Positions 15,328-33,167 of a DNA stretch of 64,000 nucleotides are shown here, in pieces; the first letter of the stretch is position 1; every line of letters begins with the position of its first letter. The translations under genes and the position numbers were made by a program. A model generated the notes under the pieces. It was not told the DNA's origin. It saw only the letters and a program-made list of their open reading frames with translations, and did no database searches. Source of the stretch: Escherichia coli (lineage in GTDB: Bacteria; Pseudomonadota; Gammaproteobacteria; Enterobacterales; Enterobacteriaceae); NCBI RefSeq assembly GCF_050920415.1, contig NZ_CP169309.1. One strand, 5' to 3'.

Positions 15328-16317
15328 ATGCAGGGTTCTGTGACAGAGTTTCTAAAACCGCGCCTGGTTGATATCGAGCAAGTGAGTTCGACGCACGCCA
15401 AGGTGACCCTTGAGCCTTTAGAGCGTGGCTTTGGCCATACTCTGGGTAACGCACTGCGCCGTATTCTGCTCTCATCGATGCCGGGTTGCGCGGTGACCGA
15501 GGTTGAGATTGATGGTGTACTACATGAGTACAGCACCAAAGAAGGCGTTCAGGAAGATATCCTGGAAATCCTGCTCAACCTGAAAGGGCTGGCGGTGAGA
15601 GTTCAGGGCAAAGATGAAGTTATTCTTACCTTGAATAAATCTGGCATTGGCCCTGTGACTGCAGCCGATATCACCCACGACGGTGATGTCGAAATCGTCA
15701 AGCCGCAGCACGTGATCTGCCACCTGACCGATGAGAACGCGTCTATTAGCATGCGTATCAAAGTTCAGCGCGGTCGTGGTTATGTGCCGGCTTCTACCCG
15801 AATTCATTCGGAAGAAGATGAGCGCCCAATCGGCCGTCTGCTGGTCGACGCATGCTACAGCCCTGTGGAGCGTATTGCCTACAATGTTGAAGCAGCGCGT
15901 GTAGAACAGCGTACCGACCTGGACAAGCTGGTCATCGAAATGGAAACCAACGGCACAATCGATCCTGAAGAGGCGATTCGTCGTGCGGCAACCATTCTGG
16001 CTGAACAACTGGAAGCTTTCGTTGACTTACGTGATGTACGTCAGCCTGAAGTGAAAGAAGAGAAACCAGAGTTCGATCCGATCCTGCTGCGCCCTGTTGA
16101 CGATCTGGAATTGACTGTCCGCTCTGCTAACTGCCTTAAAGCAGAAGCTATCCACTATATCGGTGATCTGGTACAGCGTACCGAGGTTGAGCTCCTTAAA
16201 ACGCCTAACCTTGGTAAAAAATCTCTTACTGAGATTAAAGACGTGCTGGCTTCCCGTGGACTGTCTCTGGGCATGCGCCTGGAAAACTGGCCACCGGCAA
16301 GCATCGCTGACGAGTAA
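15328..16317 (+). CDS. rpoA: DNA-directed RNA polymerase alpha subunit
   Basis: [72 protein letters not shown]..., 329 aa. Confidence 0.98.
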
Positions 16318-16333
16318 CCAGATCACAGGTTAA

Positions 16334-16741
<408 letters not shown>

Positions 16742-16753
16742 TCTGAAGCAACG

Positions 16754-16783
16754 TAAAAAAACCCGCCCCGGCGGGTTTTTTTA
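16754..16783 (+). terminator. Alpha operon rho-independent terminator
   Basis: AAAAAAACCCGCCCCGGCGGGTTTTTTTAT: GC hairpin flanked by A- and T-runs, 13 bp after rplQ stop. Confidence 0.85.
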
Positions 16784-16847
16784 TACCCGTAGTATCCCCA
16801 CTTATCTACAATAGCTGTACTCTTTTTGTTCATCCCCTGGAGTATTT

Positions 16848-17216
16848 ATGTGGTTACTTGACCAGTGGGCAGAGCGTCATATTACTGAGGCACAATCCAA
16901 AGGTGAGTTTGATAATCTTCCGGGAAGTGGCGAGCCATTGATTCTGGATGATGATTCACACGTGCCACCGGAATTACGTGCGGGGTATCGCTTGCTGAAG
17001 AATGCCGGTTGCTTACCGCCAGAACTTGAGCAGCGGAGGGAAGCAATACAGCTTCTGGATATCCTCAAAGGTATCTGTCACGATGATCCGCAATATCAAG
17101 AGGTTAGTCGTCGATTGTCATTACTGGAGTTAAAGCTGCGACAAGCAGGATTGAGTACCGATTTTTTACGCGGCGATTATGCTGACAAGTTGTTGAATAA
17201 AATCAATGATAACTAG
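16848..17216 (+). CDS. yhdN: DUF1992 family protein YhdN (122 aa)
   Basis: ORF MWLLDQWAERHITEAQSKGEFDNLPGSGEPL...; conserved position between rplQ and zntR. Confidence 0.85.
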   Translation: MWLLDQWAERHITEAQSKGEFDNLPGSGEPLILDDDSHVPPELRAGYRLLKNAGCLPPELEQRREAIQLLDILKGICHDDPQYQEVSRRLSLLELKLRQAGLSTDFLRGDYADKLLNKINDN

Positions 17217-17226
17217 TGGAGTATGT

Positions 17227-17652
17227 ATGTATCGCATTGGTGAGCTGGCAAAAATGGCGGAAGTAACACCCGACACAATACGTTATTACGAAAAGCAGCA
17301 GATGATGGAGCATGAAGTACGTACCGAAGGTGGGTTTCGCCTGTATACCGAAAGCGATCTCCAGCGATTGAAATTTATCCGCCATGCCAGACAACTTGGT
17401 TTCAGTCTGGAGTCGATCCGCGAGTTGCTGTCGATCCGTATCGATCCTGAGCACCATACCTGTCAGGAGTCAAAAGGCATTGTGCAGGAAAGATTGCAGG
17501 AAGTCGAAGCACGGATAGCCGAGTTGCAGAGTATGCAGCGTTCCCTCCAACGCCTTAACGATGCCTGTTGTGGGACCGCCCATAGCAGTGTTTATTGCTC
17601 GATTCTTGAAGCTCTTGAACAAGGGGCGAGTGGCGTTAAGAGTGACTGTTGA
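17227..17652 (+). CDS. zntR: MerR-family Zn(II)-responsive transcriptional activator ZntR (141 aa)
   Basis: ORF (from internal ATG 17227) MYRIGELAKMAEVTPDTIRYYEKQQMMEHEVRTEGGFRLY... with C-terminal Cys/His metal-binding residues. Confidence 0.92.
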   Translation: MYRIGELAKMAEVTPDTIRYYEKQQMMEHEVRTEGGFRLYTESDLQRLKFIRHARQLGFSLESIRELLSIRIDPEHHTCQESKGIVQERLQEVEARIAELQSMQRSLQRLNDACCGTAHSSVYCSILEALEQGASGVKSDC

Positions 17653-17707
17653 TTTTTTACACTGGCAGGATTACACTCGCGCCGTTAAATAACCAATTGG
17701 AGTTTTT

Positions 17708-17926
17708 ATGAGCCGATATCAGCATACTAAAGGACAGATAAAAGATAATGCGATTGAAGCATTGCTACATGATCCTTTATTCCGACAGCGTGTAGAGAAA
17801 AATAAGAAGGGGAAAGGTAGTTACATGCGAAAAGGAAAACATGGCAATCGGGGAAACTGGGAGGCCAGTGGCAAGAACGTAAATCACTTTTTTACCACTG
17901 GCCTTCTGCTTTCAGGGGCTTTTTAA
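17708..17926 (+). CDS. arfA: Alternative ribosome-rescue factor A (72-aa reading frame)
   Basis: [49 protein letters not shown]...; 3' end overlaps mscL stop. Confidence 0.9.
17864..17903 (+). promoter_or_regulatory. arfA 3' stem-loop (RNase III processing site generating non-stop mRNA)
   Basis: Perfect 9-bp inverted repeat GGCCAGTGG ... CCACTGGCC with 22-nt loop inside the arfA 3' coding region; the known regulatory hairpin of arfA. Confidence 0.7.
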
Positions 17927-18333
17927 GAGCGGTTATTCTGCTCTTTCAGCAAATCACGGATCTCGGTCAGTAATACTTCTTCTTTAGTTGGTGCAGGTGC
18001 AGCTGCTGGTTCTTCTTTTTTCCGATTCAGTTTATTGATTAGCTTAATCGCCATAAAGATGGCAAAGGCCACAATCAGAAAATCAAAGACGTTTTGAATG
18101 AAGACACCGTAATGCATAACGACTGCTGGGATATCCCCTTGCGCATCGCGTAGCGTGACAGCAAACTGTTTAAAGTCGATCCCACCAATTAATAAACCCA
18201 GCGGCGGCATGATGATATCTGCAACCAGTGAAGAGACAATCTTACCGAAGGCCGCACCGATAATGACACCCACTGCCAAATCCACCACATTTCCGCGCAT
18301 TGCAAATTCGCGAAATTCTTTAATAATGCTCAT
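17923..18333 (-). CDS. mscL: Large-conductance mechanosensitive channel MscL (136 aa)
   Basis: [57 protein letters not shown]... Confidence 0.97.
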
Positions 18334-18462
18334 GTTATTCTCCCTATAAAGCCGACAATCATAAGTCTAACAAATGTTAAGCTATTTTCCTGCCGGGAAT
18401 GAATTTAATTAATCCTTGAAAAAAAAAGGGAAATAATAAGGCGCCAGAAGACGCCTTATTAA

Positions 18463-19839
18463 TTACAAGAAGAAAGGACTTGGCTGGAAGAGACGTTCGA
18501 CGTCGGTAATAAACTTTTTGTCCGTCAGGAACATAATTACATGATCGCCTTGCTCAATACGCAGATTGTCATTGGCAATCATCACATCATTGCCGCGTAC
18601 TACAGCACCAATAATCGTTCCTGGTGGTAGCTTGATTTCATCAATGACTCTGCCCACAACGCGTGAGGTGCTTTCATCACCGTGAGCAACAGCTTCAATA
18701 GCTTCTGCAACACCGCGGCGCAATGAGGAAACACCAACAATATCGGCTTTTCGCACGTGACTAAGCAACGCAGAAATAGTTGCTTGTTGTGGTGAAATCG
18801 CAATATCGATCACGCTCCCCTGAACCAGATCCACATAAGCGCGACGCTGGATCAATACCATCACCTTTTTCGCACCCATACGTTTGGCAAGCATGGCGGA
18901 CATGATATTGGCTTCGTCATCGTTGGTGACGGCAATAAACAGATCAACTTGATCGATATGTTCTTCGGCTAGCAGTTCTTGATCCGACGCATCACCAAAA
19001 AAGACGATCGTATTCTGCAACTTTTCCGCCAGTTCGGCAGCGCGCTGCTGATTACGTTCGATGAGTTTAACGCTGTAATCTTTTTCCAGACGACGCGCCA
19101 GCCCTGCACCGATATTACCGCCGCCAACCAGCATGATCCGCTTATACGGTTTTTCCAGACGTTGCAATTCACTCATCACCGCGCGGATGTGTTGCGAAGC
19201 GGCAATAAAGAACACTTCATCACCAGCTTCAACAATGGTCGAACCTTGCGGACGAATAGGGCGATCGTGGCGGAAAATGGCTGCCACACGAGTATCGATA
19301 TGCGGCATATGTTCGCGCATGGTCGAAAGTGCATTACCAATCAGTGGGCCGCCATAATAGGCTTTAACCACAGCCAGGCTGACTTTACCCTCAGCGAAGT
19401 TCACTACCTGCAGCGCGCCGGGATACTCAATCAGTCGGTAAATATTATCGATAACCAGCTGCTCTGGTGCGATCAGATGATCAATCGGTACAGCATCTGA
19501 ATGAAATAGCTTATCGGCATCGCGCACGTAGTCTGGTGAGCGGATACGAGCGATGCGATTAGGGGTGTTGAAAAGTGAGTAGGCTACCTGGCAGGCAACC
19601 ATATTGGTTTCATCTGAACTGGTTACAGCAACCAGCATATCGGCGTCGTCGGCACCTGCCTCCCGCAATACGCGTGGATGAGAGCCATGCCCCTGCACGA
19701 CCCGCAGGTCAAATTTATCCTGCAAGGTCCGCAGACGCTCACCGTTGGTATCGACAACAGTAATATCGTTGTTCTCGCCAACCAGGTTTTCCGCCAGTGT
19801 GCCGCCAACCTGGCCGGCACCCAGAATGATAATTTTCAT
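18463..19839 (-). CDS. trkA: Trk potassium uptake system NAD-binding subunit TrkA (458 aa)
   Basis: [33 protein letters not shown]... tandem Rossmann/RCK domains. Confidence 0.97.
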
Positions 19840-19860
19840 CAGTCGCGACCCGTTATCTCA

Positions 19861-21150
19861 TCACTTTTTGATTAGCTTAGCGTAAAAGAAGCCGTCGCCC
19901 TCTTCGGCACCAGGCAGATTTTGCTTACCCGGTTGCTCTGGTGTTCCTGTTTCGCAAAGTTCGGCATCAGCGGTACGTTGCAAAAAGGCTTTAATCTGCA
20001 GGCTATTCTCTTCCGGTAACACCGAACAGGTGGCATAGACCAGGGTTCCTCCGGATTTTAAATGTGACCAGATGGCGTCGAGAATTTCAGACTGCAACTG
20101 CGCGAGTTCTGGGATATCGCGATCGCGGCGTAACCATTTAATATCCGGATGGCGACGAATCACACCGGTTGCTGAACAAGGCGCATCTAATAAAATGCGA
20201 TCAAACTGTTGCTCGCCACACCATTGGGAAGGGTAGCGGCCATCACCTTGTTTCACGGTCGCCTTCATACCAAGGCGTTTTAAATTGTCGTAAACGCGAG
20301 AGAGGCGCTGTTCGTCAATATCAACCGCAAGAACCTGCGCTTCTGGTGCCACCTCAAGGATATGCGTTGTTTTACCGCCGGGGGCAGCGCAAAGATCCAG
20401 AATGTGTTCACCGTTTTGTGGCGCAAGCCAGGCCATGCAACCTTGTGCTGATGCATCCTGAACGGTAACCCATCCTTCTTCAAAACCTGGTAGCACATGA
20501 ACAGGTGCAGGTGTTTCCAGCCGTACAGCATCAGGGTAATCCGCATGCGGGAAACCTTTCATTCCTGCTTCATCCAGCAATGCAAGCCAGCTGTCGCGGG
20601 AATGATGCGTACGATTAACGCGCAGCCACATTGGCGGACGCTGGTTATTGGCTTCAATGATGGATTGCCATTGCTCTGGATACGCTTTTTGCAGACGCTT
20701 CAGCAACCAGGAAGGATGCAGATAACGTGCATCACTGGCATTAAACTCGGCTAATAACTCTTCTTGCTGACGCTGGAACTGGCGTAATACGCCGTTAATC
20801 AACCCTTTAAGTTGCGGACGCTTAATTGCGACAGCACCTTCAACCGTTTCAGCCAGCGCAGCATGAGGTGGAATGCGGGTATAAAGCAGTTGATACAAAC
20901 CAACCATAATCAGGTAATGCACAGTGCGCTGTTTGCCGGTCATCGGACGGGCCATTAACTTATTAATCAGCCAGTCTAACTGTGAAAGCGTACGCAGTAC
21001 GCCAAAGCACAATTCTTGAAGAAGTGCTTTGTCTTTATCGGAAACTTTTTGCTGGAGCGGTGGCAGAATGTTGCTTAATGATTGCCCTTGCTCGACGACT
21101 TGTTCAACGGCCTGTGCCGCCATGCTACGTAAATTACGTTGTTTTTTCAT
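19861..21150 (-). CDS. rsmB: 16S rRNA m5C967 methyltransferase RsmB (429 aa)
   Basis: ORF (from internal Met) [26 protein letters not shown]...; NusB-like N-domain + SAM MTase; fmt-def-rsmB-trkA synteny. Confidence 0.95.
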
Positions 21151-27593: not shown

Positions 27594-29129
<1,536 letters not shown>

Positions 29130-29197
29130 CCTTAAAGAACTGTGCTTTGCAGTGCTCACACAGATTGTCTGATGAAAATGAGCAGTAAAACCTCTAC

Positions 29198-29274
<77 letters not shown>

Positions 29275-29316
29275 AATTTGCACCGCAAATTTGAAGAGGT
29301 TTTAACTACATGTTAT

Positions 29317-29392
29317 GGGGCTATAGCTCAGCTGGGAGAGCGCCTGCTTTGCACGCAGGAGGTCTGCGGTTCGATCCCGCATAGCTCCACCA
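29317..29392 (+). tRNA. alaU: tRNA-Ala (anticodon TGC)
   Basis: GGGGCTATAGCTCAGCTGGGAGAGCGCCTGCTTTGCACGCAGGAGGTCTGCGGTTCGATCCCGCATAGCTCCACCA in 16S-23S spacer. Confidence 0.97.
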
Positions 29393-29575
29393 TCTCTGTA
29401 GTGATTAAATAAAAAATACTTCAGAGTGTACCTGCAAAGGTTCACTGCGAAGTTTTGCTCTTTAAAAATCTGGAATAAGCTGAAAATTGAAACACTGAAC
29501 AACGAAAGTTGTTCGTGAGTCTCTCAAATTTTCGCAACACGATGATGAATCGAAAGAAACATCTTCGGGTTGTGA

Positions 29576-32477
<2,902 letters not shown>

Positions 32478-32663
32478 ACAACGCCGAAGATGTTTTGGCG
32501 GATTGAGAGAATTTCAGCTTGGATCCAGAGTCCGAAGGATTTTGCGCTGAGACAAGGCGGCAAATGAAGCGAAGGAAGGAGCATACTGAAGTATGTGACT
32601 GATTTTCGCGAATGCAGCCAACGCAGTATCAGCACAAAAGACACAGGACAGAGCACAGGAATT

Positions 32664-32783
32664 TGCCTGGCGGCCGTAGCGCGGTGGTCCCACCTGACCC
32701 CATGCCGAACTCAGAAGTGAAACGCCGTAGCGCCGATGGTAGTGTGGGGTCTCCCCATGCGAGAGTAGGGAACTGCCAGGCAT
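32664..32783 (+). rRNA. rrfD: 5S ribosomal RNA (120 nt), first copy
   Basis: TGCCTGGCGGCCGTAGCGCGGTGGTCCCACCTGACCCCATGCCGAACTCAGAAGTGAAACGCCGTAGCGCCGATGGTAGTGTGGGGTCTCCCCATGCGAGAGTAGGGAACTGCCAGGCAT. Confidence 0.97.
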
Positions 32784-32835
32784 CAAATTACGAAGAATGG
32801 CACTGACCTTTGAGGCAGTTCACTACTCGATAAGA

Positions 32836-32930
32836 GAGTAGGACAAAAGCGAAAGCTTTTGAACGTTGCGAAGCAACGGCCCGAAGGGTGAATCGCGAAG
32901 TGATTCATAAACTGCCAGGCATCAAATTAA
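32836..32930 (+). repeat. rrn distal spacer module copy 1 (GAACGTTGCGAAGCAACGGCCCGAAGGGTG hairpin + 5S 3'-end fragment AACTGCCAGGCATCAAATTA)
   Basis: Imperfect direct repeat of 33243..33345; includes a ~20-nt copy of the 5S 3' terminus. Confidence 0.7.
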
Positions 32931-32934
32931 GCGT

Positions 32935-33010
32935 GCTGATATGGCTCAGTTGGTAGAGCGCACCCTTGGTAAGGGTGAGGTCCCCAGTTCGACTCTGGGT
33001 ATCAGCACCA
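32935..33010 (+). tRNA. thrV: tRNA-Thr (anticodon GGT)
   Basis: GCTGATATGGCTCAGTTGGTAGAGCGCACCCTTGGTAAGGGTGAGGTCCCCAGTTCGACTCTGGGTATCAGCACCA between the two 5S genes, as in rrnD. Confidence 0.96.
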
Positions 33011-33047
33011 CTTTTTAGGTTAAAGTTCGGCAGATTAGAAAAGAATT

Positions 33048-33167
33048 TGTCTGGCGGCAGTAGCGCGGTGGTCCCACCTGACCCCATGCCGAACTCAGAA
33101 GTGAAACGCCGTAGCGCCGATGGTAGTGTGGGGTCTCCCCATGCGAGAGTAGGGAACTGCCAGACAT
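33048..33167 (+). rRNA. rrfF: 5S ribosomal RNA (120 nt), second copy
   Basis: TGTCTGGCGGCAGTAGCGCGGTGGTCCCACC...GGGAACTGCCAGACAT; near-identical to first 5S copy with terminal-helix variants. Confidence 0.96.

Follow-up and report, generated by a model that had tools for sequence, protein, structure and literature searches.

The arfA-mscL junction of an Escherichia genome and the conserved stem-loop within the arfA reading frame

In the stretch of Escherichia coli DNA analyzed here (the window, 64 kb in full), the genes arfA and mscL run tail-to-tail into each other, and the 3′ coding region of arfA contains an inverted repeat. This arrangement raises the question of what the repeat is for: whether it is the stem-loop through which arfA limits its own product in E. 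coli K-12, a transcription terminator, an element that serves mscL on the opposite strand, or a palindrome that serves neither gene.

Gene content and stem-loop at the arfA-mscL junction

The features of the locus and its neighbors are collected in Table 1. The arfA product matched Pfam family PF03889 with 89.5 bits (E = 9e-26) against a cut-off of 25.5, which places it in the ArfA family, and it was identical to K-12 ArfA at 70 of 71 aligned residues and matched PDB chains of ArfA bound to the ribosome at 3e-45. Residues 1 to 55 are the same as those of the K-12 protein, from which it would be expected to rescue ribosomes together with RF2 on non-stop complexes. The product of the opposing gene matched the MscL family PF01741 (E = 2e-47, Pfam), and RefSeq labels both arfA and mscL on a 100%-identical locus, where the gene order is zntR-arfA-mscL-trkA.

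The arfA frame ends with TAA at 17924-17926 and the mscL stop codon, also TAA, is the reverse complement of 17923-17925; the convergent coding sequences thus overlap by 4 nt at the DNA level. An earlier note on this DNA had described a 72-codon arfA ending at 17926 and an mscL stop at 17923-17925, both in agreement with the list of open reading frames, and the 4-nt stop overlap that it reported was found as the TTAA common to the two stops. A 5-bp palindrome (GCTTT TTA AGAGC, 17918-17930) is centered on the overlapping stops, and a similar stop-centered palindrome occurs in K-12 and other Escherichia and is absent from other genera; this palindrome is probably incidental. Inspection of 17653-17707 by eye for an arfA promoter revealed no convincing −35/−10 pair.

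Table 1. Positions of genes and RNA elements at the arfA-mscL locus of the window
Feature	Position	Strand	Basis
rplQ	16358-16741	+	
yhdN	16848-17216	+	
zntR	to 17652	+	
arfA ORF, 72 codons, alternative ribosome-rescue factor A	17708-17926	+	ORF list, Pfam, K-12 identity, RefSeq, PDB
arfA part left after the predicted RNase III cut (55 codons, stop-less, predicted active truncated ArfA)	17708-17872	+	K-12 alignment
Complete regulatory stem-loop, arfA nt 146-206	17853-17913	+	Inverted repeat, fold, published coordinates
5′ arm of conserved 13-bp core, includes GGCCAGTGG	17859-17871	+	79-orthologue alignment, columns 12-24
Upper stem and loop	17873-17893	+	Folds, covarying pairs
3′ arm of conserved core, includes CCACTGGCC	17895-17907	+	79-orthologue alignment, columns 48-60
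Putative equivalent of K-12 yrdG, 54-nt arfA-derived sRNA antisense to the mscL 3′ UTR	17873-17926	+	K-12 alignment
Predicted mscL 3′ UTR (+1 to +70), mirror hairpin	17853-17922	−	Fold; transcript extent inferred
TTAA common to both stop codons	17923-17926	both	Sequence and ORF list
mscL ORF, 136 codons, large-conductance mechanosensitive channel	17923-18333	−	ORF list, Pfam PF01741, RefSeq
trkA	18463-19839	−	

Upstream of the arfA stop codon lies an extended, partly mismatched inverted repeat with arms at 17853-17880 and 17886-17913, in which GGCCAGTGG occupies 17863-17871 and CCACTGGCC occupies 17895-17903. The earlier note had drawn attention to this repeat as a perfect 9-bp stem starting at 17864; repeat and stem are both present, with the start corrected by one position to 17863 and the perfect Watson-Crick run lengthened to 10 bp (17862-17871 with 17895-17904). 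Counting G.U pairs, the stem reaches 14 bp (17858-17871 with 17895-17908), and an outer helix adds 4 bp (17853-17856 with 17910-17913). Folding, which the note had proposed as a check on its strong hairpin, bore the hairpin out: the 66-nt plus-strand RNA has a minimum free energy of −30.3 kcal/mol versus −15.7 ± 2.7 kcal/mol in dinucleotide shuffles (z = −5.4), 0 of 200 shuffles folded as well, and among all 66-nt windows on the same strand of the 64 kb the stem-loop belongs to the top 0.16%. The minus-strand RNA of the hairpin folds at −25.7 kcal/mol (z = −4.5). The upper stem and loop make up most of a 24-nt RNase III product known from K-12 (arfA nt 166-189, equivalent to 17873-17896).

Rfam 15 gave no match at 17853-17926 in a permissive search of 16000-20000, even at E ≤ 1, and at gathering thresholds no family was found at the hairpin in a scan of the whole window; the arfA hairpin is known from the literature yet is without a matching Rfam model. 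A consensus terminator scan missed the main hairpin, the loop of which is larger than the scan allows. Its only call was a weak 6-bp stem at 17903-17918, which we judged not meaningful.

Two other features of the window were recorded. One is an rRNA operon at 27594-33165 that probably resembles E. coli rrnD. It is complete by Rfam, with 16S, two tRNAs, StyR-44, 23S, 5S, a tRNA and a second 5S. The other is a pile-up of sub-threshold Rfam matches on both strands (STnc370, isrK, istR and others) at 16690-16830, between rplQ and yhdN, which is most likely the terminator hairpin after rplQ and not an sRNA.

Comparison with K-12 and conservation among orthologues

In an ungapped alignment to MG1655 over 271 nt, the locus showed 97% nucleotide identity. 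The K-12 arfA gene (yhdL, b4550) has the same surroundings, rplQ-yhdN-zntR-arfA on one side and mscL-trkA on the other, and the same TTAA overlap with mscL, and its regulatory stem-loop, experimentally defined at arfA nt 146-206 (PMC10070815), has coordinates equal to those of the stem-loop in the window. The two stem-loops differ at 3 of 61 positions, none at a cut site. At 17854 the window has A and an A-U pair where K-12 has G and a G.U pair; at 17902 it has C, and because this C gives G-C and not the G.U formed by the T of K-12, the 9-bp stem is perfect in the window. The third difference, C17878 (A in K-12), breaks one upper-stem pair and replaces Lys57 of K-12 with Asn57; it is unique among the 79 orthologue sequences described below, 76 of which keep that A-U pair. 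Apart from Asn57, the proteins differ only at residue 72 (Phe in the window, Cys in K-12), and both differences fall in the discarded tail. Over 90 nt, the predicted fold amounts to −33.4 kcal/mol in the window versus −37.1 kcal/mol in K-12.

Published RNase III cuts in E. coli lie after arfA nt 165 and nt 189 (PMC10070815). They map to positions after C17872 and after C17896, and on the comparison with the published site that the earlier note had suggested, the bases there proved identical to those of K-12. The two mapped cuts are staggered by 2 bp between the strands of the predicted stem, as expected of RNase III, and by alignment this strain would be cut at these same positions. In the K-12 RefSeq record, the final 54 nt of arfA are also annotated as an ncRNA, yrdG (b4846), with the description "arfA-derived small regulatory RNA".

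Positions 17600-18450, and probably the whole window, are 100% identical to E. coli strain MFDS1022581. Among 5425 matching E. coli genomes, identity to the window was at least 99% in only 4 and between 90 and 95% in 5416. The DNA probably comes from an Escherichia lineage, divergent or cryptic, that has been filed as E. coli.

A scan of a genome collection with a 10-sequence ArfA alignment gave 80 loci from 80 species, Enterobacteriaceae only, and these comprise 79 distinct sequences that were aligned without gaps over 75 columns. At all 80 loci arfA converges on mscL, the stops abutting (gap 0) or overlapping by 4 to 65 nt, and the same 4-nt overlap as in the window was found in K-12, other Escherichia and Citrobacter. 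Overlaps up to 65 nt were seen in Salmonella diarizonae and arizonae, Trabulsiella and some 'Enterobacter' species. The arfA ORF varies from 68 to 93 codons, and the mscL stop lies 3 to 18 nt from the hairpin base in every one of the 80 species; hairpin and mscL stop are fixed while the arfA stop shifts. The arfA stop is under no positional constraint, which would follow if the functional protein were something other than the full-length product.

The earlier note had reckoned with a repeat that might fail to be conserved in arfA orthologues. Instead, the same hairpin folds in all 79 distinct sequences, and hairpins were present in all 4 more distant ArfA genes as well. Standard pairs fill 1026 of the 1027 cells of the 13-bp core (17859-17871 with 17895-17907). 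Of the 75 columns 26 are invariant, including 11 of the 13 in the 5′ core arm, and the sole changes in the 3′ core arm are C/T exchanges opposite G, from G-C to G-U. In the upper stem, the pair at columns 33-39 covaries (CG in 46 sequences, UA in 28, UG in 5, unpaired in 0), as does that at columns 34-38 (GC in 44, AU in 11), and the formal covariation support within Enterobacteriaceae rests on these two pairs, the core being invariant and not covarying. Overall, 90.7% of cells are paired versus 42 to 62% when partners are slid by 1 to 3 columns, and RNAalifold independently recovers the same helix. The outer 4-bp helix is poorly conserved.

At third codon positions the entropy falls from 1.19 bits in codons 2-47, which encode the essential part of the protein, to 0.36 bits across codons 51-67, and it is close to 0 in the core arms. 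Such low values in the hairpin codons, over a dispensable part of the protein, indicate a constraint at the level of the nucleic acid. At codons 68-71 the amino-acid entropy climbs to 2-3 bits, and the C-terminal tail of ArfA (12 residues), encoded at and beyond the 3′ arm, is hydrophobic and poorly conserved. Within the core, 148 cells have a G.U wobble, which pairs in the arfA sense only, versus 1 cell with A.C, which pairs in the antisense only. Because of this 148:1 strand bias, we reasoned that the arfA transcript is the principal object of selection.

Distant orthologues, designated L083 to L086, were sampled separately and have an ArfA identity of 37 to 54%. Each carries a strong hairpin approximately 135 to 200 nt into the ORF (z from −4.8 to −8.0), the sequence of which is unrelated to the enterobacterial one. 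In L083 and L084 the hairpins are classic GC stems followed by T-tracts, like intrinsic terminators, and in L084 to L086 the gene called downstream of arfA is on the same strand and not convergent. According to Schaub 2012, as cited in reviews, arfA hairpins of other beta- and gamma-proteobacteria generate non-stop mRNA, and a strong hairpin at this distance into the ORF is reproduced structurally in our four distant genes. The enterobacterial hairpin, with its long and partly mismatched stem, resembles typical RNase III substrates, whereas some of the distant ones look like plain intrinsic terminators.

Two stray loci emerged from the searches. The E. coli plasmid pEC81-2 (NZ_CP088132.1, 71230-71859; 104 kb) carries an arfA-mscL pair in which arfA is of the Enterobacter type, with 80 codons, and overlaps mscL by 27 nt. 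This pair is located between Tn3, IS110, IS3 and IS26 remnants, and its hairpin region is 86% identical to that of the window; the pair appears to have been mobilized together. A 383-bp contig of 'Arthrobacter sp. 18067' (NZ_CACSJJ010000125.1) contains an enterobacterial arfA/mscL junction with 86% ArfA identity and is probably a contamination of the Arthrobacter assembly.

Proposed autoregulation of arfA and competing explanations

The gene identities, the overlap, the structure, its conservation and covariation and the strand bias were all observed directly, and nothing in the sequence speaks against a canonical arfA module. We are therefore highly confident that the locus is the canonical enterobacterial arfA autoregulatory module, set tail-to-tail with mscL. 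Cleavage, tagging and the antisense effect would operate here by analogy with the K-12 experiments in the literature.

In such a module, the 3′ coding region of the arfA mRNA would fold into the long stem-loop, which RNase III would cleave at positions that, by homology, follow 17872 and 17896. The hairpin may also give some premature transcription termination, as a second route to non-stop mRNA. Either route would leave a 55-codon arfA mRNA that has no stop codon and at the 3′ end of which ribosomes would stall. Once trans-translation is saturated, untagged truncated ArfA would be released and, together with RF2, would rescue stalled ribosomes, while the hydrophobic tail encoded beyond the hairpin would destabilize any full-length ArfA. 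The remaining 17873-17926 fragment, which is complementary to the mscL 3′ UTR because mscL ends inside arfA, would be released and would lower the stability of the mscL mRNA.

In E. coli, RNase III cleavage and premature termination of arfA both lead to non-stop mRNA, and full-length ArfA is unstable owing to its hydrophobic C-terminus (PMC3989581, PMC8012679). Truncated ArfA is constantly translated, SsrA-tagged by tmRNA and degraded, and it accumulates only upon saturation of trans-translation (PMC3989581). As related in reviews, the experiments of Garza-Sanchez 2011, Chadani 2011 and Schaub 2012 match this interpretation of the arfA hairpin. The earlier note had invoked RNase III cleavage and a non-stop mRNA, and in this it matches the published system; its statement that truncated ArfA is made only when tmRNA fails needs the refinement that the protein is always translated and under those conditions accumulates. 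The Rfam gathering-threshold scan of the 64 kb lists no tmRNA, which places ssrA outside this window.

The hairpin could instead act mainly as an intrinsic terminator inside arfA, with RNase III secondary and the non-stop mRNA arising chiefly from polymerase that stops past the stem. A U-rich stretch (TTCTGCTTTC, 7 of 10 T) after the stem and the terminator-like hairpins of L083 and L084 favor this explanation, and the U-rich flank together with rnc-mutant data (PMC3989581) makes termination plausible as a parallel route. However, the U-tract is interrupted and lies partly within the extended stem, the simple terminator scan passed over the main hairpin, disruption of rnc raises the level of E. 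coli arfA mRNA, and ArfA C-termini determined by mass spectrometry agree with the RNase III site (PMC3989581). We thus regard termination as a possible but rather improbable main source of the non-stop mRNA. The termination and RNase III routes have the same outcome and are not mutually exclusive.

A further explanation turns to the opposite strand: the hairpin would be kept mainly for mscL, as the stem-loop at the 3′ end of its transcript (a terminator, a stabilizer or an RNase III site), and arfA would merely overlap it. The nearness of the mscL stop to the hairpin base in all 80 species accords with this, as do the stable minus-strand fold (orthologue mean, −30.0 kcal/mol) and the cleavage of the K-12 mscL 3′ UTR stem-loop by RNase III in vitro (PMC10070815). 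Against it, the wobble cells pair almost exclusively in the arfA sense, the minus strand shows no U-tract past the stem (UCCCAGUUUCCCC), in L084 to L086 a hairpin occupies the corresponding ORF position even though the gene called downstream lies on the same strand, and synonymous mutations that break the stem alter E. coli arfA expression (PMC3989581). These observations make a primary role for mscL unlikely.

A chance origin of the palindrome, or its origin as a dispersed (REP/BIME-like) element with no specific function, is ruled out for practical purposes. A bare 9-bp repeat proves nothing alone, since approximately 6.8 perfect 9-bp inverted repeats with a loop of up to 30 nt are expected per 64-kb dinucleotide shuffle. 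The whole structure, however, has a z of −5.4 and is conserved over 79 orthologues with frozen synonymous sites. Its motif is unique in the window except for its own opposite arm; of 5426 complete E. coli genomes, 5425 have it exactly once, and in all E. coli matches listed it lies under arfA|mscL.

Probable antisense link to mscL and its meaning

The stem-loop at +1 to +63 of the mscL 3′ UTR was described in K-12 by Morra et al. 2023 (Life Sci Alliance, PMC10070815), who also reported that mscL and arfA are co-located, classified the overlaps of their coding sequences across Gammaproteobacteria and described a 54-nt arfA fragment with 24- and 30-nt derivatives. The arfA fragment is antisense to the mscL 3′ UTR and shortens the half-life of mscL mRNA (PMC10070815). 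ExcludonFinder 2025 lists mscL-arfA among the E. coli pairs with RNA-seq-supported transcript overlap (PMC12288877). For K-12, these two sources document the antisense passage of mscL transcription through the hairpin that the earlier note had deduced from the overlap. The window resembles this excludon in its convergent coding sequences and overlapping 3′ ends, and here too the arfA hairpin falls within the first ~70 nt past the mscL stop and both strands fold; the DNA architecture of this lineage is that of a predicted excludon.

Every synonymous site of the core arms is among the 26 invariant columns, and the mscL stop is held 3 to 18 nt away. In an ordinary hairpin, such sites could covary. 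From the invariant columns and the fixed stop arises the idea that the hairpin truly serves both strands, under joint selection for arfA self-cleavage and for the formation or processing of the mscL 3′ end. We advance this idea tentatively and think it somewhat improbable; it was already partly proposed by Morra et al. 2023 (PMC10070815). If it is true, a single palindrome would link the capacity for ribosome rescue and the abundance of the channel, in both directions.

The arfA stem-loop, its cleavage, the tmRNA fail-safe and the antisense link to mscL are already published. The finding is thus correct but ordinary, and it matters little as a discovery, although real biology was recognizable here from the raw sequence. 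For the organism, it means that the arfA module is intact in what is probably a divergent Escherichia lineage. For the family, the frozen synonymous sites, the 148:1 wobble bias and the shifting arfA stop provide a clean example of an RNA structure embedded in a coding sequence.
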